Source: a virus (lineage: Duplodnaviria; Caudoviricetes). Taken from it: 61,719 nt of DNA. Position numbers and translations under genes: made by a program. The DNA lies in IMG/VR virus record IMGVR_UViG_3300045999_005102, positions 1 to 61,719 of that record; one strand, written 5' to 3'. Below the pieces are notes generated by a model. It did not search any database. It had not been told where the DNA came from and saw nothing but the letters and a program-made list of their open reading frames with translations. Below, piece after piece: positions 704 through 11,566 of this stretch. The number at the start of each line of letters is the position of its first letter. The first letter of the stretch is position 1.

Positions 704-1355
704 CAGCTTTTCCGACCAGTCGTTCAAGGCCGACTCATTCGAGTTCGGCGACGACATTGGCGGCACCGCACAAGGACAGACCACAACCGGCGCGGGAACA
801 GTCAGCGTCGCCATCACGGGCAGCGCGACCACGGCGCAAGGACAGACCGCAACGGCATCTGGCGTCCTGGCATTCAGCGGAACTGCCAACACGGCGCAAG
901 GGCAATCCAACGAGACTGCTGGAACACTGGCGTTCACCGGGGCCGCAAACGCTTCGCAAGGGCAATCCATTGCCGGCACTGGCGCCCAAGCGTTCAGTGG
1001 AGCGGCCACCACCGCACAGGCTCAAGCCGTTGATGGTGCCGCCACCCTGGCGTTCAGTGGCGCAGCCGGCACAGCGCAAGGGCAGGCCGCTGATGGCGCG
1101 GGCACAGTCCTGGGGGGCATCACCGGATTTGCCGAGACAGGCCAAGCACAGGGAATTGTTGCGCGTGGCTTTTACGACGAGTTCCTGGAGCCGATAGGCG
1201 TCGGCGCAGATGCTCGGATTGCTCGGCGCCGGTCAGAATCAGACACCTTCGTTCCAGCCGACGTGCTGGCAATGCGCCGCCTGGACGAAGATGAGATCTT
1301 GCTTGTCATGATCGCCCGCGCTGTCACCTCTGGGGCCTTGAACCAATGGCACTGA
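690..1355 (+). CDS. Putative structural protein with ~20-aa repeats (AFSG..TAQGQ)
   Basis: GTG at 690 overlaps the upstream gene. About six repeats of type LAFSGAANTAQGQ; acidic/hydrophobic C-terminus DEDEILLVM. Confidence 0.7.
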   Translation: MFRRSSFSDQSFKADSFEFGDDIGGTAQGQTTTGAGTVSVAITGSATTAQGQTATASGVLAFSGTANTAQGQSNETAGTLAFTGAANASQGQSIAGTGAQAFSGAATTAQAQAVDGAATLAFSGAAGTAQGQAADGAGTVLGGITGFAETGQAQGIVARGFYDEFLEPIGVGADARIARRRSESDTFVPADVLAMRRLDEDEILLVMIARAVTSGALNQWH

Positions 1356-4300
1356 ACACCAAACTCGCCGGGTCCGGCTGCGTCGAAATCGCCGCACGGA
1401 TTTCCCAGGAAGACCAGGACGCGCTGCTGCAGCGCCTCGAAGACCTGGAGGCGGCCGGCACCGGGCGCAAAGAGGCCCAGGTCATCGCCGCGCAGGACGC
1501 CCTGCAGGCGATCCTCGATGAGCGCAAGGAGTTTCAGCGGCTGCTGCGCGAGCAGCACCCGGATCTCTTCGCCGACGACCTCGACGCAATGTTCGATGAC
1601 GTCCTGGCCGAGGAGATGGGCAAGGACAAGGCCGAGGGCAAGAAACCGCTGCGCACGGTGCGCCAGGCGCTGGGCTCCGCGGCCAAGAACACCGGCTCGG
1701 GCCTGACCAACGCTATCGACGGCCTGGGCAAGTTGTTCGGCGGCAAGCCGGGGCAACTGAACTCCGGCATCGGCTTCGACGAGGAGACCTACGCCAAGGC
1801 CAAGCCGTTCTTCCTCCAGGCGATCAAGAACCTCAAGGACGCAGCCCAGGATCTGCGCGAAGCCATGCGGGCAATCGTGCGCATGGTGCTGGACAAGTTC
1901 GGCGCCCAGGCCGCGGAGAACATGAAGCCCTACGTGGTGCGCTTCATGAAGGACGTGCAGGCGGGGGAGGTCAAGTTGGAAGGCCCGGCCACCGCCACCG
2001 AAGGCGAGCGCGTCACCCTGGCGCGTGGGTTCCTGCAGGACTTCGAGGCGGGCAAGTCGTTCGGCACGATCGTGGCAGCCCGCACGCGGGCCAGCGAGAT
2101 CATCGGACGCAAGATCGAGCCGGGCACCGCTGACGCGAAGCTGGTGGACGAGGCGGTCGAACTGGCCGGGGTCATGTTCGCCCGGGGCGTGGTGCGTGCT
2201 GGCGGCACGGCGGTGGAGATCTACAACCGGCTGCAGGAGTTCCAGGAGAACCAGATGCCGGGCCTGAACGTGCGCGACACGATCAGCCTGCGCAATCAGG
2301 CCTACAGCACGCCGCTGCCCCTGGCCTACGTGGCGAGCAAGCTCGCGGGCATCAACTTCCAGACGACGGTCCTGGAGCCCACGGCCGGCAACGGCGCGCT
2401 CGTAATGCGCGCCATGCCCAGCAAGACGGTCACCAACGAGATCAACCCCGACCGGGCCGAGGCGCTGCGCGCCCAAGGCTACACGCCCACGCAGGAAGAC
2501 GCGGCGACGATGAAGTTCGCGCCGAAGTCGGTCAAGGTGGTGATCGCCAACCCGCCGTTCGGCCCGCGTGGCGACGAGCGGTGGCAGATCGACGGCCTGG
2601 ACACACGGGAGATCGACCACGCCATCTCGCTGAACTCCCTGCAGGCCATGGATGACGACGGCACGGCCGTGCTCATCATCGGAGGACCGATCGCACGCGA
2701 GGACGGCGCACGGCGCGACACCTACCGCGGCAAGAGCAAGCGCGAGTTCTTCTACACGCTTTACAACTCCTACAATGTCGTCGATCATTTCACCGTGGCC
2801 GGCGACCTGTACGCTAAACAGGGCGCCACGTTCCCGGTCGATGTCATCGTCATCAAGGGCCGCGGCAAATCGAATCGAGCCCTGCCGGCCGCCCAGTTGC
2901 CGCAACTGGTGGACACCTGGGACGCACTACGGGAGAAGCTGAATGCCAATGCTGATGACTTGGGCGCCGAAGGGACAGGAACTCCTGGGGGCGATACGCG
3001 GGGTCAAGGGCCAGGAACTCAGCCGGGATCTGTACCCGGTACTCCTCCGACGCCGACTGGAGCAGATGGTGGAGACGGCGGAACCAGAGGACGTCCAACA
3101 GATGGAGGATCTGCTGCTGGAGGCGGGACTACTGGCACAGCCACTGGATCGAACCAGGATCGGCCGGGAGGTGGTCGAGGACAACGAGGAAGTCCTGATG
3201 GAACTGCGCAGCCGGGGGATACCGGGACGGATGCCACCGTCCCTGGAGACCAGCAACTCGGCAGCGGAACAGACGGTGCTCGAAACCAACCTGCTGGAGT
3301 GGACACACGCGTTGGTGAGCGGAAGGATCGAGCGCGGGTAAGCGAGGACGACGCTGGCAAGCTCCAGGTCAAGTACAACAACTTCTCCGGCAACAAGTCG
3401 GTCAACACCCTCGTTGCCACCAACCACCTGACGGCCATCGAGCGCGCCTTCGAGGCGCTGCGGGCCCGGGTCGGTGAAATCGACGAGTTCGTGCGCAACG
3501 AACTCAAGTACACCCCCGAAGAGTTCAAGAAGTCGTTTTCGGCCGAACAGGTCGAGGCGCTGGCGCTTGCCATCGACAACATCAAGCGCGGGGCCGGCTT
3601 CATCATCGGCGACCAGACTGGCATCGGCAAGGGCCGGGTCGTGGCGGCCATGATCCGCTACGCCAAGCTCAACGGCAAGACACCGGTCTTCGTCACGCAG
3701 ATGCCGGACCTGTACGGCGACATGATGCGCGACCTGAACGACATCGGCATGAGCAACATCAAGCCGCTGATGACGAACAACAACGCCTCGGTTCCGCTCG
3801 ATGCGGAGGCCCTAGCGTGGTTCGGCGAGAAGCAGGGCATCCAGACCCAGATCGCCGAACTGCAGGACGACATGGACGTGCTGGCCATCGCCGACCTGGG
3901 CAACAAGCTCAACGGCATGGAGGACGCCGACCGCAAGAAGGAGATCGCGGCCGAGGTCAAGCGGTCCACCAACCCCGACATCGTGGCCATCAAGCAGCAG
4001 ATCATCGAACTGCGAGCCGAGATGCCCGAGCGCCGCGGCAAGTTCCTGGAGACGCCCGAGATCGAGCGCCACGAGTCGATGCTTCGCGGCATAGTTGAGT
4101 CCAACTCGATTGGCAACTTCGATGTGATCTTCACCACCTACAACCAGATGGCGCCGCTTGACTCAGGCAAGCCCAGGCGCGATCCGGGGACGGGGTTGAG
4201 GGTTCGCAACCCGGTGAAGTTCGGCTACCGCAATGCGTTCCTGCAGCACTTCGTCAACAGCGACTCCATGCTGATTCTGGACGAGTCGCACAACGCGGGC

Positions 4301-7300
4301 GAGGCCGGCGACGGCAGGTTCCCAAAGGTGGGCGACGTGGTGCGGCAACTCATCAACGCATCGGGCGGGGTCTTCTACTCGTCGGCCACCTTCGCCAAGA
4401 ACCCGAGGGTGATGGATGCCTACAGCAAGACCGACCTGGGTAAGGCGTTCGGCAACGTCACGACGCTGATCGAGAACATCAGCAGCGTGCCGATGCAGCA
4501 GACGTCGTCGGCCATGCTGGTCGCGGCCGGCCAGTACCTGCGGCGCGAGCGGTCGTTCGATGGCATCGAGTACCGCATCGACAGCGTTGAGGTGAACACC
4601 CAGGACGCCGAGGACGTGAGCGAGGCCATGCGCCTCATCGTGGACTTCGATCGGGCCAAGCGCGCCGCAATCCAGGATATCCAGGACGCCCTGGACTCCG
4701 AGGGCGCAGTGATGAGTGCCGGTGGCGCCGGCATGTCGCAGGCGTCGGTGGACTCGGTGAACTTCACCTCGGTGATGCACAACGTCATCAACACGTTCCT
4801 TCTGGCGCTCAAGGCCGAGCAAGCGGCCAACAAGGCGATCGAGGCGATCCGCAGGGGCGAGAAGCCTGTCATCACCGTGGCCAACACCATGGGGGCCTTC
4901 ATCGCCGAGTACGCCAGTGCCGAGAACCTGGGCATCGGCGACAAGATCGAGGCCAGCTTCGCCGACATCCTCACGCGCTACCTGGAGAAGACCCGCACCG
5001 TCACGATCAACAACGGCGACGGCTCGCAGACCAAGACTCGACTGACCGACGAGCAACTGGGTGACGAAGGTGTGGAGGCCTACAACGCGGCCCGCGACTT
5101 CATCGAGGAACTGGAACTGTCGGTCCCGCTGTCGCCCATCGACCACATCAAGCAGTTGATCCAGGGGGCCGGGCACAGCATCGGCGAGATCACGGGGCGG
5201 CAGACGATCGTTGACGAGAACGGCGTGCTGCGCAAGCGCCCGAGCGCCGAGATGAACACGGCCGGCAAGAAGAACACGATCGCCAAGTTCAACGGCGGCC
5301 AACTCGACGCGCTCATCATCAACCGCTCCGGCTCGACCGGGCTGTCGATGCACGCCTCGGAGACCTTCGCCGATCAGCGGCGGCGCGTGATGGTGATCGC
5401 CCAGGCCGAACTGGACATCAACAACCACATGCAGATGCTCGGCCGGGTCAACCGGACGGGGCAAGTCAGCGCCAACGGCAAGGCGCCGCCAGACTTCACG
5501 GCCACCTTCGGCCTGCCGCGCTACGTGCAGATGACGGCCAACGTGCCGATCGAACTGCGCCCGGCTGCGGTGCTGTCGAACAAGATGGCCGGTCTGAGCG
5601 CCAACACCACGGCCGGCCGCAAGTCGGCGGTCGAGGACAAGAGCGCGCCGGACTTCATGAACAAATACGGCGACCGGGTGGCTGCCGAGTTGGTGGGCAG
5701 CGATCAGGCGCTGAACTTGCGCCTGGGGCTTCCCGTGAGCTTCGACGAAAACGGCCGGCCAGCGGTGGATGGCGCCATGGCCAAGGTCACCGGACGCATC
5801 GGCCTGCTACCGCTCAAGGATCAGAACGAACTCTACGACCAACTCGGCGCGGCCTACGTCGAACTGATCGCGCAGTTGGACGCCCTCGGCCAGAACGAAC
5901 TGGAGGCCAAGACCTACCCGCTCGACGCCAAGACCATGGCCACCCGCGAGGTGATGCCGGCCGACGCGGGCTCCGATAGCCCGTTCACGGCCGCTGTCAA
6001 CGCCGAGCGTGTCAACGTCAAGAAGCTCGGCAAGCCCTGGCCCAAGGCCAAGGTCGAGGAACTGGTGCGCGGCGCGCTGGGGATCACGGACGGCAACCAG
6101 ACGGCGGCCAACGTCGCCAAGCTCAAGCGCGCCGAGATGCTGAGTCAGATGCGGCGCGACATCGCCGCCGAACAGCAGGCCAACACCGCGGAGGCCGGCA
6201 CGGACCCCGACAAGGTCACCGAGGCCACCAAGAAGAACGACGCCCTGGACCGGGCGCTCACGCGCTTTCAGTCGATGCTGCCCACCATCGGCCAGGGCGT
6301 GAAGCTGGAGACGGACTCAGGCAACCTGTACGGCATCGTCACCAACGTCGAGCGCAAGGGCAAGGCCAAGTCGGCTGGATCTCTGAGCGTGTGGAAGATC
6401 CGGGTTGCCGTGGTCGATGGCGCCAAGAGCATGACGTTCTCCATGACGCAGTTGGCCGCCACGCCGGAGGAGCGTGCTCTGCGCATGGACGGCGTGATGA
6501 TCTCGCCAGCCACTGAGATGACGGTCATCTCCCAGGATGGCAGCGGAACGGAGCGCGTGCCGATCGCCGACGGATTCGACCGCGGCCAGACCGATGCCCG
6601 CGAGACGCGCTGGATGATTACCGGCAACGTGCTGCGCGGCTACTCGCAGTTCAAGGGCCGCATCCTCAACTACACCGACAGCAGCGGCAACATCCTGCAG
6701 GGCATCATGATGCCTGCAAACTTCGACCTCGACGCTGCGCTGCGCAGGGTGAGGTCGGAGATGAGCGACCCCGCGAAGATCGCCGCGCTTCTGGATGCGG
6801 GCGGCGTGGTGGTGGACAAGGAGACGGGCGGCGACGTCGTCACGCTCAAGCGCAGCGGCGGGGCCTACATCATCGAGGTGCGCCGCAGCGGCACGGGCAA
6901 GAAGATCTCCAAGGATCTCGGCCCGTACTTCTCGTCGGTCGGCAACAGGATGCGTGCCGAGCTATGGAAGAACGGGGAGAGCGACAAGTTCCTGGAGGCG
7001 GTGCGCGGCATCATCAACGTGTTCAAGACGCCCCTGATCGCCGACAAGGACTCGGATTCGATCCTGCGCGGGATGCAGGAGAGGCAGCAGCCGCCGAATC
7101 CGATGGACTTTGCGCGCCAGCCACCCATCCTCGATGTCACCGGCATCAAGGAGATGAAGGGGCGCCACCTTCAAGTCCAGGCCGCGGCTCGCCTGCTGGA
7201 GCAGGGCAAGATCACCCGCAGCCAGTACGACGCCTACGTTGACTTCTACAAGCCAATCGAGTTGATCGAGCCTGACAAGCTGCTCGCGCCCACGTCGGAC

Positions 7301-10300
7301 GAGAAGATGCAGCAGACGGTGGACGCGGGCAAGCGTGACAAGGTCAACGTGCCGGTGGCCGATGGCACCAAGGTCGGTCTTCGCATGGATCTGCCGGCTC
7401 GTGATCGCGGCGGCTCTGTGGTCTCGATCCACGAAGGCAACGCCGGCAGGGCTTCGGCCGGCAAGATCATCAGCTTCCAAAGCACCGGATGGTTGAAGAA
7501 CGTCACGTTCGAGACGCGCAGTCAGACCAAGGGCCTGAAGATCGCCACAGGCGCGGCCAAGGAGCCGCTGCAGACGGTCGAGGGCACATGGTTCAACCTG
7601 TCGCCCGAGGACGCGTTCGCTAGGGCCAAGGCGCTGATGAGCGACCCGGCCTGGAAGCAGATCGGGTTCGACCCCACACGGCACGGCTACTTCTACGACA
7701 GGGCCACAAGGCAGCCTGTTGTGGCCGCTGACGAGGTCTACCAGATCGGCCAGTTCCTCATCGCCAAAAACGTCCAGTTCGCGCCGCGTGAGTCGTTCCT
7801 GTACGCGCCGCCGCCAGACATCCAATCCCCCTCCCTGGCCTTCAGCGAAACCCTGGAGTCGGTGCGGGCCGACGCGCTGCCCACGCTCACGAGCCTGGAG
7901 AAGAAGCGTGACGCGGGCAAGATCACCGAGTCCGAGTACCGCCTGGGCGTGCAGCAGTTGATCGGCCGGATGCAGCGGCGCAACGAAGAGCGCACCTACC
8001 GCAGGGTGGTCAGCGGGCGCAAGCGCGGCACCGACTGGATCATCGCCAAGATGCGCACCGGGGTCTCGCAGGGCACCGTGACGAAGGAGGCCGCTGACTT
8101 CGCGCAGTGGCTGCTCGATCAGAACCCGCACATGGGCGATGGCCTGGGGATCAGCATCAAGAGCGCCGAGAAGGACCGCACGGCAGCCGGCCAGTACGAC
8201 TACGTCAGCAAAGTATTCACGCTGGTCACGGGCAGGATGAGCGACACCACAGCCGTTCACGAGGTCTTGCACCACGCCGAGCGGATGATGCCGATCGAGG
8301 TGCAGGACGGCGTGCTCAAGGAGTGGATCCGCGCTTGGGACGCAGCCTACAAGAACGGCACCCCAGAAATGCGGCAAGCCCTGAATGACATGCTGCACTC
8401 CGGGCTGTTCGGCGACAAGGCGGCGGGCGATCGTCTGCGTGATGCCTACGCCAAGGGGGTGTGGAACTACGACGACCACTACCAGTTGTTCAGCCCGTCA
8501 GAGTTCTGGGCGGTCAACGCCACGCGCATCCTGTCGGGGCGGTATGCGGCCAAGGGCTCGTGGGTCAAGCGGGCGATCCAGTGGATGAGGGAGTTCATCC
8601 AGCGGATCAAGGCCGTCTTTGGCCTGCGCTCTGATGCGCCGATCATCGAGGGCCTGAACGCCGTCATGGAGGGCAACGGCACGTTCCTGTCGCGGCAGAT
8701 GTTGTCGGAGCAGGCGGTGCTGGAAGTTGCCGAGCGCACGCGCCGCGCCCCGCAACCCGCAGCGCCCACCGTCAACGACTTCGCTCGCAACATCACCGAT
8801 GGACTGATCCAGCACTACGGCCGGCCCAAAGCAAAGTTCAAGACGTTCAACGCCTACGACAAGACACTGTCTACCCAGTTCAATAAGGCGCTGAAGGACC
8901 GCGACTTCGGCAAGGTCTTCGCCTACGCGAACGCGATGCAGAACCAAGTGTCGCTGTCGTCGCTGCGGCCGTCCGAGTTGGCACCCAGGCTGCTGCCACG
9001 GGTGGACGACATCGTCTCCGCGGCCCGCACCATGGTGAAGGGACGAGTCGATGATGCCGACACCCAGGGCGCGGCCAACGCCATCTTCGCGGGCACGCTG
9101 GACGGCGCGAGCGTGCTGGAGGGCCGGGTCTGGAGCGAGGAAGAGTTGCGCACCCGGTTCGATCTGACCGACCGTGGCGTGGCGCTCTACAACGAGGCCA
9201 GGGCCGCGATCGACGCCAGCCTGGACGAGGTCTCGGCAGCCGAGGCGTACTCGATGGTGCAGGTCTTCGTGACCAAGGACGTGCGCCGGCAGATCATCGA
9301 CAACCCGCAGTCAGCCCAGCCCCTCATCACGGCGCAGTTGCGCCGGATGTTCGCCCAGCTTGAGGCGGCCATCAAAAAGGCTCAGGAGTTGGGCTTCGAG
9401 GATCGTGTCGCTGAACTGGAAGCGACCCGCGACTCGTACCTCGAAGTGCAACGCAAGGTCGAGTCGGTCTTCAACCTGGGCCGGGCCATGAAGGCTGCAG
9501 GCTACGCGCCCCTGATGCGCTTCGGCAAGTTCACGGTGCAGGCCGAACTCGTCAACCCGGAGACGGGGCAACTGATCCGCGGCGACGACGGCACTGCGGC
9601 CACCCTGTACTTCGAGCGGTTCGAGACCGGGGGCGAGGCTCAAGAGGCTCTGCGCAAGGCTCAGATGCTGCACGAGGGCAACCCCGAGGTGCGGGTGCGC
9701 TTCGGCACGAACAGCGAACTGCAGCACGAGATGTACGCCGGCATCTCGCCCGAGACCCTGGCGCTGTTTGCCGAGGCCGTGGGTGCCAAGGACGTCATGC
9801 GCACCTACTACCAGGACGCCATCTCGGAGCGGTCGGCGCTCAAGCGGCGCCTGAACCGCAAGGGCGTGCCGGGGTACTCCAAGGACATGCCTCGGGTGCT
9901 GTCGAACTTCATCACCAGCAACGGCCGGTACGCCGCGCAGCGGTTCTACCTGCGCGACCTGACCAACGCGGTGAAGTACATCCCGCAAGAAAAGGGCGAC
10001 GTCAGGGACGAGGCGATCAATCTCAAGAACTTCGTCATGAACCCCAACGACCCGGCCGCTCCGGTGTCTACGTTGGCCTTCGCGTGGTTCCTGGGCGGCT
10101 CGGTAGCGGCCATGTTCGTCAACATGGCCCAGCCGTACATGGTCACGTTCCCGCACCTGACGAGGTTCGCCAGCCCAGCGCAAGTGACCGCTGTCATGGC
10201 CAAGGCGCACCCATACGCCTGGGGCCGCAAAGAGATCACCGACCAAGACCTCAAGCGGGCTCTCAAGCGCGCCAGCCAGGAGGGCATCGTTGACGCCCAG

Positions 10301-11566
10301 GAGATCTTCCACCTCTACAGCATCGGCGCGCAGAGCGTGGCGGCCAAGCTGGTCGCGGGGCTGTCGCGCATCCCGGGGGCTGGACGCGGCATCAAGGCCG
10401 GCAGCGAGAGCGCCCGCGCCCGGATCAATGCCTTCCTGACCCTGTGGGGCTCGATGTTCTCGGTGGCCGAGCGGCTGAACCGCAAGGTGACGTTCATCGC
10501 CGCCTACAACCTCGCGGTCGAGAACGGCATGACGGACCCCTACGCCTTCGCGGTGCGGGCTGTCAACGAGACGCAGGGGATCTACAACAAGGTGAGTCGC
10601 CCGAACTGGGCGCGCCCAGGCTTCGGCCGGATCGTGCTCACCTTCAAGCAGTTCCCCATCATGATGGTGGAGCTAATCAACAGAATGTGGCGCAACGGCG
10701 GCCCCGAGGGCAAGCGGGCGGCGCTCATATTCCTGGCCATCCTCATGCTGCTGTCTGGCCAAGAGGGTCTGCCGTTCGCCCAGGATCTGGACGACATCAT
10801 CGACACGCTCGGGCAGATAATGGGCTTTGACACCAACATGAAGGGGTCGAAGCGCGAGTTGGCCTACACGGTCCTGGGCAAGGCGCTGGGCGACCAGTTC
10901 CTCTACGGGCTGTCGGTCTATCTGCCGCTGGACTTCTCCGGCCGCTTCAGCCTGGGCAACCTGATCCCTGGCACCGGCATGTTCAAGAAGTCGAACGCAG
11001 AGTCCACCGGGCGAGAGATCGCTGAGATCGCCGGCCCGGTGTTCGGAGGTCTCGCCACCCAGGCCATGGACGCCTTCGAGGCCTGGAACGCCGGCAACGA
11101 CAGCAAGGCGATGGAGAACATGGCACCCAAGGCCGTTAAGGACGTCGTGGCTGCAGCCAAGATGGCCAAGGAAGGCTACGCGGTGGACCGGGCCGGGCGC
11201 AAGGTGGTGGACACCACGCTCGGAGACGCGGCCATCAAGGCGGCGGGCTTCAACCCGACGGTGGTGGCCAACGTCACGCGCAAGACCATGCCCATCCAGC
11301 AGGACATCGCCCTGCAGCGCACCGTCGAGGCCTCGATCGTCGATCAGTGGGTGCGCGGCATCGTTCAGGACGACGAGGCCATGATCCAGGCAGCGCAGAA
11401 GGAGCGCGACGACTGGAACAAGCGCAACCCCAAGACCCAGATCGTGATCGGGCCGCAGCAGATCAGGAGCAGGATCAAGGCGCGCAACCAGGACAAGGAA
11501 AACCGCGTGCTTCGCAACGCCCCACCGGAGATGCGAGGCCGGATCGCCTCAGAGCTTGCTGAGTAG
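1346..11566 (+). CDS. Giant polyvalent (DarB-like) virion protein: N6-adenine methyltransferase, Strawberry-notch-type SF2 helicase, zincin-like metallopeptidase and PLxRFG domain
   Basis: VLEPTAGNG and NPPF (MTase motifs I and IV, ~2369-2560). GDQTGIGKGR, ILDESHN, YSSAT, SGSTGLSMHA and QMLGRVNRTGQ (helicase). HEVLH...SEFWA (~8258). YAPLMRFG (~9509). Confidence 0.9.
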   Translation: MALNTKLAGSGCVEIAARISQEDQDALLQRLEDLEAAGTGRKEAQVIAAQDALQAILDERKEFQRLLREQHPDLFADDLDAMFDDVLAEEMGKDKAEGKKPLRTVRQALGSAAKNTGSGLTNAIDGLGKLFGGKPGQLNSGIGFDEETYAKAKPFFLQAIKNLKDAAQDLREAMRAIVRMVLDKFGAQAAENMKPYVVRFMKDVQAGEVKLEGPATATEGERVTLARGFLQDFEAGKSFGTIVAARTRASEIIGRKIEPGTADAKLVDEAVELAGVMFARGVVRAGGTAVEIYNRLQEFQENQMPGLNVRDTISLRNQAYSTPLPLAYVASKLAGINFQTTVLEPTAGNGALVMRAMPSKTVTNEINPDRAEALRAQGYTPTQEDAATMKFAPKSVKVVIANPPFGPRGDERWQIDGLDTREIDHAISLNSLQAMDDDGTAVLIIGGPIAREDGARRDTYRGKSKREFFYTLYNSYNVVDHFTVAGDLYAKQGATFPVDVIVIKGRGKSNRALPAAQLPQLVDTWDALREKLNANADDLGAEGTGTPGGDTRGQGPGTQPGSVPGTPPTPTGADGGDGGTRGRPTDGGSAAGGGTTGTATGSNQDRPGGGRGQRGSPDGTAQPGDTGTDATVPGDQQLGSGTDGARNQPAGVDTRVGERKDRARVSEDDAGKLQVKYNNFSGNKSVNTLVATNHLTAIERAFEALRARVGEIDEFVRNELKYTPEEFKKSFSAEQVEALALAIDNIKRGAGFIIGDQTGIGKGRVVAAMIRYAKLNGKTPVFVTQMPDLYGDMMRDLNDIGMSNIKPLMTNNNASVPLDAEALAWFGEKQGIQTQIAELQDDMDVLAIADLGNKLNGMEDADRKKEIAAEVKRSTNPDIVAIKQQIIELRAEMPERRGKFLETPEIERHESMLRGIVESNSIGNFDVIFTTYNQMAPLDSGKPRRDPGTGLRVRNPVKFGYRNAFLQHFVNSDSMLILDESHNAGEAGDGRFPKVGDVVRQLINASGGVFYSSATFAKNPRVMDAYSKTDLGKAFGNVTTLIENISSVPMQQTSSAMLVAAGQYLRRERSFDGIEYRIDSVEVNTQDAEDVSEAMRLIVDFDRAKRAAIQDIQDALDSEGAVMSAGGAGMSQASVDSVNFTSVMHNVINTFLLALKAEQAANKAIEAIRRGEKPVITVANTMGAFIAEYASAENLGIGDKIEASFADILTRYLEKTRTVTINNGDGSQTKTRLTDEQLGDEGVEAYNAARDFIEELELSVPLSPIDHIKQLIQGAGHSIGEITGRQTIVDENGVLRKRPSAEMNTAGKKNTIAKFNGGQLDALIINRSGSTGLSMHASETFADQRRRVMVIAQAELDINNHMQMLGRVNRTGQVSANGKAPPDFTATFGLPRYVQMTANVPIELRPAAVLSNKMAGLSANTTAGRKSAVEDKSAPDFMNKYGDRVAAELVGSDQALNLRLGLPVSFDENGRPAVDGAMAKVTGRIGLLPLKDQNELYDQLGAAYVELIAQLDALGQNELEAKTYPLDAKTMATREVMPADAGSDSPFTAAVNAERVNVKKLGKPWPKAKVEELVRGALGITDGNQTAANVAKLKRAEMLSQMRRDIAAEQQANTAEAGTDPDKVTEATKKNDALDRALTRFQSMLPTIGQGVKLETDSGNLYGIVTNVERKGKAKSAGSLSVWKIRVAVVDGAKSMTFSMTQLAATPEERALRMDGVMISPATEMTVISQDGSGTERVPIADGFDRGQTDARETRWMITGNVLRGYSQFKGRILNYTDSSGNILQGIMMPANFDLDAALRRVRSEMSDPAKIAALLDAGGVVVDKETGGDVVTLKRSGGAYIIEVRRSGTGKKISKDLGPYFSSVGNRMRAELWKNGESDKFLEAVRGIINVFKTPLIADKDSDSILRGMQERQQPPNPMDFARQPPILDVTGIKEMKGRHLQVQAAARLLEQGKITRSQYDAYVDFYKPIELIEPDKLLAPTSDEKMQQTVDAGKRDKVNVPVADGTKVGLRMDLPARDRGGSVVSIHEGNAGRASAGKIISFQSTGWLKNVTFETRSQTKGLKIATGAAKEPLQTVEGTWFNLSPEDAFARAKALMSDPAWKQIGFDPTRHGYFYDRATRQPVVAADEVYQIGQFLIAKNVQFAPRESFLYAPPPDIQSPSLAFSETLESVRADALPTLTSLEKKRDAGKITESEYRLGVQQLIGRMQRRNEERTYRRVVSGRKRGTDWIIAKMRTGVSQGTVTKEAADFAQWLLDQNPHMGDGLGISIKSAEKDRTAAGQYDYVSKVFTLVTGRMSDTTAVHEVLHHAERMMPIEVQDGVLKEWIRAWDAAYKNGTPEMRQALNDMLHSGLFGDKAAGDRLRDAYAKGVWNYDDHYQLFSPSEFWAVNATRILSGRYAAKGSWVKRAIQWMREFIQRIKAVFGLRSDAPIIEGLNAVMEGNGTFLSRQMLSEQAVLEVAERTRRAPQPAAPTVNDFARNITDGLIQHYGRPKAKFKTFNAYDKTLSTQFNKALKDRDFGKVFAYANAMQNQVSLSSLRPSELAPRLLPRVDDIVSAARTMVKGRVDDADTQGAANAIFAGTLDGASVLEGRVWSEEELRTRFDLTDRGVALYNEARAAIDASLDEVSAAEAYSMVQVFVTKDVRRQIIDNPQSAQPLITAQLRRMFAQLEAAIKKAQELGFEDRVAELEATRDSYLEVQRKVESVFNLGRAMKAAGYAPLMRFGKFTVQAELVNPETGQLIRGDDGTAATLYFERFETGGEAQEALRKAQMLHEGNPEVRVRFGTNSELQHEMYAGISPETLALFAEAVGAKDVMRTYYQDAISERSALKRRLNRKGVPGYSKDMPRVLSNFITSNGRYAAQRFYLRDLTNAVKYIPQEKGDVRDEAINLKNFVMNPNDPAAPVSTLAFAWFLGGSVAAMFVNMAQPYMVTFPHLTRFASPAQVTAVMAKAHPYAWGRKEITDQDLKRALKRASQEGIVDAQEIFHLYSIGAQSVAAKLVAGLSRIPGAGRGIKAGSESARARINAFLTLWGSMFSVAERLNRKVTFIAAYNLAVENGMTDPYAFAVRAVNETQGIYNKVSRPNWARPGFGRIVLTFKQFPIMMVELINRMWRNGGPEGKRAALIFLAILMLLSGQEGLPFAQDLDDIIDTLGQIMGFDTNMKGSKRELAYTVLGKALGDQFLYGLSVYLPLDFSGRFSLGNLIPGTGMFKKSNAESTGREIAEIAGPVFGGLATQAMDAFEAWNAGNDSKAMENMAPKAVKDVVAAAKMAKEGYAVDRAGRKVVDTTLGDAAIKAAGFNPTVVANVTRKTMPIQQDIALQRTVEASIVDQWVRGIVQDDEAMIQAAQKERDDWNKRNPKTQIVIGPQQIRSRIKARNQDKENRVLRNAPPEMRGRIASELAE
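2943..3341 (+). CDS. Nested +1-frame gene (132 aa, Leu/Glu-rich) inside the giant gene
   Basis: GGAGAAG precedes the ATG. In this interval codon bias favours this frame (CTG/GAG/GTG) while the host frame uses atypical GGA/ACA/CCA/AGA. Confidence 0.65.
   Translation: MPMLMTWAPKGQELLGAIRGVKGQELSRDLYPVLLRRRLEQMVETAEPEDVQQMEDLLLEAGLLAQPLDRTRIGREVVEDNEEVLMELRSRGIPGRMPPSLETSNSAAEQTVLETNLLEWTHALVSGRIERG

Follow-up and report, generated by a model that had tools for sequence, protein, structure and literature searches.

Is the low-complexity linker between the methyltransferase and helicase domains of a giant phage protein only a linker, or do the same bases also encode a second, complete protein? 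The question is raised by the IMG/VR record IMGVR_UViG_3300045999_005102 (positions 1-61,719; hereafter the window, meaning this whole stretch), a complete 61.7-kb virus genome of a temperate tailed phage with genes for an integrase, a terminase, a portal, a major head protein and an internal virion protein. Its giant open reading frame (ORF), which by translation and by Pfam and PHROG matches codes for a polyvalent DarB-like protein of 3406 amino acids (aa), spans 1346-11566 (+ strand) and hosts a second ORF in its +1 frame at 2943-3341 (+ strand), with an ATG start, a product of 132 aa and a TAA stop at 3339-3341. Taken together, the ORF list, homology, the substitution pattern and an AlphaFold2 (AF2) model indicate that 2943-3341 is very probably dual-coding, with the linker of the giant protein in the main frame and a complete small gene in the +1 frame.

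Two readings of one inter-domain linker

The embedded ORF lies wholly inside the giant gene, on the same strand but in a different frame, and is furnished with its own start and Shine-Dalgarno (SD) sequence. The SD-like GGGAGAAG (2931-2938, + strand), evident in the sequence and with an SD match at the corresponding place in 122 of the 126 related loci described below, is placed 7 nucleotides (nt) 5' of the embedded ATG; the spacing is counted from GGGAG at 2931-2935. Directly before the ATG stands a +1-frame TGA (2940-2942, + strand), so that the sequence here reads TGAATG. At its other end the ORF stops 20 nt 5' of the helicase anchor. A preliminary description of this DNA had proposed just such an arrangement, namely a ribosome-binding site, an ATG and 132 codons in the +1 frame followed by a stop shortly before the helicase domain, and each of these elements is in place. 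The conserved main-frame motif (R/K)EKLN, in which the methyltransferase domain ends, contains both the ribosome-binding site and the start of the embedded gene.

The codon pattern of the linker is equally distinctive. The preliminary description spoke of a Gly/Thr/Pro low-complexity stretch at this place, with A-ending codons that are rare elsewhere in the gene. The main-frame composition over the 133 codons (G37 T19 D14 P13 A12 R11) agrees with the first part of this account; the second part holds insofar as A occupies 0.29 of the third positions in the linker against 0.06 in the whole gene, but T-ending codons are equally enriched (0.31 against 0.06). The GC contents of codon positions 1, 2 and 3, which are 0.63/0.44/0.88 in the gene, shift to 0.77/0.73/0.41 in the linker, and reading the linker in the +1 frame yields a gene-like 0.73/0.41/0.77, as had been claimed for the codon usage of that frame. 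When GC at third positions (GC3) is plotted in segments of 133 codons, the gene-wide minimum coincides with the linker (0.406, lowest exactly at codon 532), whereas the other segments have a GC3 of 0.905 +/- 0.026 and never fall below 0.827 (z = -19 for the linker). The frame-wise GC3 check suggested in the preliminary description singles out the linker.

The giant ORF has, in order, a methyltransferase, a strawberry-notch-type superfamily 2 (SF2) helicase and an extended C-terminal region. Its methyltransferase part matches PHROG 6263 (DNA methyltransferase, 4e-9) and has an IANPPFG motif in its translation, with no Pfam methyltransferase model above the cut-off; the C-terminal two thirds of this domain, including NPPFG and ending in (R/K)EKLN, were placed at 2231-2941 (+ strand) from the alignment of 110 relatives, the translation and the upstream sequences of 126 loci. 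The main-frame linker, of Gly/Thr/Asp/Pro/Ala/Arg low complexity by translation and codon statistics, covers 2954-3361 (+ strand) and has its bases in common with the embedded gene. The start of the helicase part, comprising the first RecA-like lobe with the GDQTGIGKGR and DESHNAG motifs, extends over 3362-4600 (+ strand), as delimited by the helicase anchor, the alignment of 110 relatives and Pfam (AAA_34, 4e-20; Helicase_C_4, 3e-15; ResIII, 1e-4, for the helicase part). Residues 2642-3392 match PHROG 10089, 'DarB-like antirestriction' (3e-34). Judged by these sequence matches, the giant protein is a DNA methylase-helicase dyad of the polyvalent proteins and, going by the PHROG name, may have an antirestriction role. 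Scans of 2300-3600 for terminators and promoters returned no terminator and a single weak sigma-70-like site at 2760-2788 (TTTACA, a 17-nt spacer and GATCAT; 9/12, with a mean of 0.0 in shuffles), which lies about 155 nt 5' of the embedded start within the methyltransferase coding region and was not used as evidence.

Conservation of the frame and its substitution pattern

Relatives were collected by scans with the flanking domains, which kept 80 loci of 228 relatives in viral contigs, 80 of 110 in metagenome contigs and one genome contig. Both anchors, the methyltransferase end and the helicase start, are present in 146 loci, in all of which they share one frame; 126 of the loci are non-redundant. 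Across these 126, with GC contents of 37-71%, a +1 ORF of 88-203 aa is found at the linker without exception. Its start codon is ATG in 124 loci, GTG in one and TTG in one, and an SD match (at least 4 bases, 3-12 nt 5' of the start) accompanies it in 122, mostly as AAGGAG and also at 37-45% GC. The motif AAGGAGAAATTAAATG is retained in genomes of 37-45% GC although local usage there favours AAA GAA and AAC. In 117 loci the +1 ORF takes up 84% of the linker or more (median 92%), and the lengths of linker and ORF vary together (Spearman 0.87); the +2 frame has 2-25 stops in 125 loci and 47 in the remaining one, L146. The embedded protein aligns with the copy in locus L001 at 45% identity (E 3e-32). 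Homologous linkers interrupted by +1 stops and devoid of a ribosome-binding site and ATG, which would have spoken against the gene, are therefore not what these loci present.

Both frames are more open than composition would have them. With the main-frame protein fixed and codons drawn from the flanks, the probability of an open +1 frame has a median of 0.18 across loci and drops to 0.007 in the 25 loci with GC <=0.45. Conversely, the main frame is without a stop in 124 of the 126 loci, and given the embedded protein its probability of being open (median 0) falls short of 0.05 in 104 of the 126. Open against expectation in both directions, the two frames are both actively kept. An assembly error or a compensated frameshift as the source of the overlap was rejected, since neither frame is broken in 124 of 126 independent assemblies.

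Two of the loci have histories of their own. In L146 an insertion-sequence (IS)-type DDE transposase (DDE_Tnp_4, 4e-26; 4522-5421, - strand) sits between linker and helicase and splits the giant gene, and the 178-aa embedded ORF is intact despite the insertion. In L126 (1194-4310) there are two main-frame stops at the start of the linker, whereby the locus reads as a methyltransferase gene, a 184-aa small gene and a helicase ORF; this is a short, low-coverage contig, and the stops may be an error.

Two further phages were also compared. Bacteroides phage BS-TP4 (PQ571277.1) has an unannotated 119-aa +1 ORF at 3710-4069, in the same place in its giant coding sequence (CDS), and a main-frame linker rich in Gly/Arg/Ser/Thr. 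In Acinetobacter phage MD-2021a, a distant relative with the methyltransferase-helicase arrangement, the linker is about as long (3735-4144) but acidic, with hydrophobic residues and many +1 stops, and there is no embedded gene. A search of both records with the family profile gave no match.

The conserved signals also bear on whether the +1 frame is entered by initiation or by a programmed shift of ribosomes already translating the giant gene. In the latter case a +1 shift near EKLN, ending at the stop at 3341, would append the domain as a C-terminal extension to a short methyltransferase-domain protein made beside the full-length giant. SD-like sequences are able to stimulate +1 shifts, as in prfB, and the domain is C-terminal in most of its fused homologues (see below), so that a fusion to the methyltransferase domain would fit the family architecture. 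However, a +1 stop abuts the embedded start in 48 of the 126 loci, and nearly all have one in the preceding 100 nt or so; the ATG, needless for a shift, is conserved in 124; the distance from SD to ATG is that of initiation sites; and the 126 upstream sequences contain neither a slippery run nor a slow main-frame codon. We accordingly consider such a shift highly unlikely.

To identify the frame under selection, substitution rates per codon position were obtained from 44 independent pairs, taken from 1015 candidates, with embedded-protein identities of 35-85%. At positions 1, 2 and 3 of the +1 frame the rates are 0.359, 0.266 and 0.460, with position 3 exceeding position 2 in 44/44 pairs, and a frame-blind nucleotide alignment yields practically the same picture (0.355/0.266/0.447; again 44/44). 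The second position of the +1 frame is the third position of the giant gene, where the rate is 0.266 in the linker as opposed to 0.546 in the helicase flank. A third position that is the most conserved one of the giant gene in the linker is a classic sign of an overlapping gene. Moreover, the embedded protein is conserved more than the linker protein in 41 of the 44 pairs. Selection is thus not confined to the main frame but acts mainly on the +1 frame, the substitutions following the latter in every pair.

At closer range the same region is strikingly variable. Between the window and its closest relative, L084, nucleotide identity is 0.63-0.72 within 2876-3325 and 0.82-0.99 in the flanks, making this the most diverged part of 2.4 kb, and the differences at all three codon positions exceed the synonymous-site difference of the flank. 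Cassette recombination, diversifying selection or weak constraint may account for this divergence.

Several observations weigh against a dual-coding linker. Holding the amino acids of the window's linker fixed and resampling its codons from the remainder of the gene leaves the +1 frame without a stop in 4673 of 5000 draws, so that an open frame is in itself non-significant. The 126 related loci are non-independent samples, and the 44 pairs had been selected on embedded-protein identity. The SD match is absent in 4/126 loci, while in 9/126 the ORF covers less than 84% of the linker, including four long linkers at about 40%. The dual-coding stretch evolves fastest between the window and its closest relative, which is compatible with weak constraint no less than with an arms race. 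Finally, the +1 ORF of BS-TP4 has no detectable similarity to the family, either with hhalign (probability 1%) or in the profile search.

The first of these points is also the core of the view that the ORF is an accidental by-product of composition and encodes no protein: T occupies only 0.05 of the second positions in the main frame of this hydrophilic linker, and because of this scarcity +1 stops are hardly possible there. Off-frame ORFs of 80-128 aa do exist elsewhere in the giant gene, which has 65% GC. Such a view leaves unexplained the ATG in 124 and the SD match in 122 of the 126 loci, as well as the collapse of GC3 (z = -19), and is at odds with a main-frame third position that is the most conserved in 44/44 pairs, with a frame that stays open in low-GC relatives where the probability is 0.007, with the confident AF2 model and with the in-frame homologues in ordinary genes that are described below. 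In the window itself, an ATG at the embedded start arises in 305 of the 5000 synonymous resamplings. What exceeds chance is the codon-position anomaly together with the comparative data, not the length of the ORF, and we hold a purely compositional origin to be very improbable. The second-longest same-strand off-frame ORF of the giant gene (10444-10830; 128 aa, GTG start) is itself probably due to chance, because the gene has no second dip in GC3.

A widespread family without annotation

The window product has 132 aa and an isoelectric point (pI) of 4.7; the family as a whole is acidic, with a median pI of 4.5 and 94% of members below 6. Alignment of 120 distinct ATG-started proteins brings out W-x-P near the N-terminus, ALADRV-like, N-x-x-L and FP motifs, and L-x-x-W near the C-terminus. 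From this 120-sequence alignment AF2 predicts, with a predicted local distance difference test score (pLDDT) of 93.5 and a predicted template-modelling score (pTM) of 0.87, a fold in which a small beta hairpin precedes six helices, and an independently made model of a fused homologue has the same order of secondary-structure elements. The impression of a globular product conveyed by the preliminary description is thus matched by a predicted compact domain.

This confident prediction bears on one further alternative, in which the ORF would matter without its product, for instance as a translational device that tunes translation of the downstream helicase part. A position at a domain boundary and a conserved SD inside a coding sequence would suit such a role. 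A device of this kind, however, needs no conserved, confidently folding protein over 130 codons and would lack homologues fused in frame to other domains, and we find it scarcely credible.

Database comparisons gave the family no relative. With the model of the embedded protein, the best Foldseek matches had E-values of 0.25 (PDB) and 0.55 (BFVD), and a wide VIA-align search peaked at Z 3.3 (root-mean-square deviation, rmsd, 4.0; 92 residues aligned). Pfam returned DUF438 as the best match of the window protein (E 0.025, below the cut-off), and among the 120 family members a match to one only, DUF4129 at 0.0058; the family has no match in PHROGs, NCBIfam or PADLOC. The best match of the embedded protein among PDB sequences had an E-value of 0.048, and the ESM Atlas gave no usable match. 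A blastn search of phages with the region and a tblastn search of cultured phages and plasmids with the homologue P0009 found no match; the tBLASTn comparison of the product itself (P0001) with cultured phage records, which the preliminary description had put forward as a check, could be made but produced two chance-level matches only (E = 7). No known anti-defence protein or fold proved similar to the embedded protein in these searches, and as regards the DNA mimics Ocr and ArdA, the fold searches listed no such entry and Pfam, PHROG, NCBIfam and PADLOC no match. A structure co-prediction in which the embedded protein, the methyltransferase domain and the first lobe of the helicase were each entered as an alignment scored 0.00 in two runs without controls and has no bearing either way.

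The notion that such genes are missed by standard annotation was largely right. Two GenBank phage records annotate the giant CDS only, and a protein set of 5.8 billion clusters contains 4 relatives, each from a contig of between 1.1 and 4.1 kb; on the other hand, a HMMER profile search of a larger library, with 1.84 billion representatives, retrieved 750 proteins, among which 241 reach E <= 1e-10. The embedded protein belongs to a widespread family that lacks annotation.

Ordinary genes without an overlap encode the domain as well. Among the best 150 of the 750 profile matches, 115 are of at most 170 aa and 27 of at least 200 aa. RefSeq WP_128000194.1, named a GIY-YIG nuclease family protein, combines T5orf172, a zinc ribbon and the domain in frame, and its T5orf172 portion matches PADLOC PDC-S57. 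Other in-frame fusions join the domain to a transmembrane (TM) segment with ankyrin repeats, in several cases to multiple TM segments, to DUF3293, or to an N-terminal domain without a known family followed by a poly-Asp/Glu stretch; P0029 (305 aa) has the domain twice in tandem (residues 1-130 and 162-283). Fused homologues mostly have the domain at their C-terminal end, behind another module. In P0039-type homologues (330-347 aa) it is N-terminal and followed by a C-terminal domain of roughly 200 aa, the model of which (pLDDT 74.7) has the fold of YbjN and type III secretion chaperones: this fold fills the first 21 rows of the VIA-align list (Z 9.2 to 6.6, rmsd 3.0-5.5, 104-129 residues aligned), and Foldseek returned 8q8o, 5fr7 and 1k3s with probabilities of 0.99-1.00 and E-values of 0.006-0.05. 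The likeness to the YbjN/type III secretion class I chaperone fold is confined to this C-terminal domain, the embedded protein itself being without such a fold (best Z 3.3); it is only a hint, from a predicted structure, that the domain may work with a binding or chaperoning module. A search of viral contigs for a phage context found none for the P0039 architecture and, for P0162, one ordinary embedded copy.

In bacteria, the domain was present in 4 of 401 genomes of one order, with two copies embedded in giant ORFs and one stand-alone, and 400 further genomes sampled at the class level gave no match except in G001, the genome at the centre of the search. Embedded copies that resemble prophages lie in genomes G091 and G160. 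Locus L170 (G051:C57, 5443-7575) features a stand-alone gene of 313 aa outside any giant ORF, which encodes the N-terminal domain, the poly-Asp/Glu stretch and the family domain, in a P4-like island with an integrase and a Toprim/DUF3987 primase. The next gene codes for a LEM-3-like GIY-YIG protein (PADLOC PD-T4-3, 6e-16), and on the opposite strand is a 1125-aa HKD+SNF2 gene; the 313-aa gene and the GIY-YIG gene may form a defence or anti-defence pair.

The -1 frame of the stand-alone copy is open and rich in Gly/Ser/Thr/Pro, which implies that the composition of the 'linker' is that of the coding sequence of the domain read one base back. Along with the correlation of linker and ORF lengths and the differing linker of MD-2021a, which has no embedded gene, this favours the earlier suggestion that the linker is a by-product of the embedded gene.

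Possible roles, precedents and significance

In the mechanism that we propose, ribosomes would start at the internal SD and ATG inside the main-frame (R/K)EKLN and would make, from the giant gene's own mRNA, an acidic, compact and mostly helical protein of about 130 aa. The globular domain would dictate the sequence, and the disordered linker would be the reading of its -1 frame, an overlap that the linker could tolerate because it need only stay open and hydrophilic.

As to function, our leading guess, weakly inferred and well short of an even chance, is that the embedded protein may bind the giant, presumably ejected protein and serve as its adaptor, chaperone or regulator. We lean this way because in every relative the gene is located where methyltransferase and helicase meet and because one subfamily has a chaperone-like fusion. 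Nearly as likely, and itself doubtful, is that it would act as a free-standing anti-defence or host-takeover factor that makes no contact with the giant protein, the linker being a tolerant site co-expressed with an anti-restriction gene. The acidity of the family, the rapid divergence of the embedded gene as the fastest-evolving segment and the defence-island contexts all point in this direction, with cellular homologues fused or adjacent to defence-type modules (the T5orf172/PDC-S57 fusion, the PD-T4-3 neighbour and the P4-like island with HKD+SNF2). Against it stand the lack of similarity to known anti-defence proteins or folds, and the constancy of its site, at the junction of methyltransferase and helicase in 126/126 loci, for which tolerance alone does not account; further, the defence associations rest on two cases.

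A more speculative and rather improbable version of the partner reading would cast the embedded protein as a dedicated handle of the giant protein, by which the latter is packaged or held inactive until ejection. Bacteria and satellites would then have taken up the domain, and its fusions with nucleases, membrane anchors, ankyrin repeats and chaperone-like modules would serve as a bait for sensing or blocking incoming phages with such giant proteins. If this were true, the rapid divergence of the embedded gene would be the trace of an arms race, and a large family of phage proteins would carry, as its disordered linker, the shadow of a folded gene on the same bases.

The embedded architecture as such is known. 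In the spanins of phage lambda, Rz1, a roughly 60-aa lipoprotein of the lysis system, is embedded with its own ribosome-binding site and start in the same-strand +1 frame of Rz, and both proteins are made and cooperate. The gene described here resembles it: complete and furnished with a ribosome-binding site and a start, it lies within another phage gene, in the +1 frame of the same strand; it differs in that it would encode a predicted soluble acidic domain of about 130 aa, in that its host is a 3406-aa polyvalent protein and in that the overlap falls exactly on an inter-domain linker. With respect to the host gene, the accessory Dar proteins of phage P1 are encoded by separate genes. P1 DarB is the archetype of the polyvalent methylase-helicase dyad, an adenine methyltransferase fused C-terminally to an SF2 helicase, and the main text that defines these proteins treats the strawberry-notch-type helicase as the rarer case among dyads and names an N-terminal LPD36 domain for dyad proteins (Iyer et al. 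2017, PMC5512222). The giant gene shares with DarB-type dyads the order of methyltransferase and SF2 helicase and, by PHROG, a DarB-like C-terminal part, and differs in having the strawberry-notch type of helicase. In the main text of that article the words 'overlapping', 'linker' and 'low-complexity' are absent, and the single 'frame' refers to other open reading frames.

A second comparison is with the overprinted genes of small viruses, such as B in A and E in D of phiX174 and those of RNA viruses (reviewed in PMC8227390 and PMC6188560). In the usual view of these it is the younger frame that encodes a disordered accessory protein. Our case is similar in pairing one ordered with one biased, disordered frame and in the lowered synonymous variation of the host frame, but the roles are reversed: the host frame is the disordered one, and the embedded frame is globular by prediction and found elsewhere as an ordinary domain. 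Literature searches, with supplements outside their scope, found no description of this embedded gene. From the known embedded and overprinted genes it departs in its host gene, in lying on an inter-domain linker, in the exchange of order and disorder between the frames and in belonging to an unannotated domain family.

Long same-strand overlapping genes are regarded as rare in double-stranded DNA phages, and gene callers forbid them. The locus adds a well-supported and long example, of about 130 codons, to these phages, and protein catalogues built with standard callers miss such genes almost entirely. The embedded start codon could be removed without altering the giant protein, which makes it a clean experimental handle. 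The comparison also defines a widespread, unannotated domain with a confidently predicted fold and no known relative, which occurs both in phages and in bacterial defence-island contexts. For the large family of giant anti-restriction-type proteins, finally, it would mean that a second gene shapes what passes for a disordered linker between two domains, and this bears on how the composition and codon usage of such linkers are to be read.

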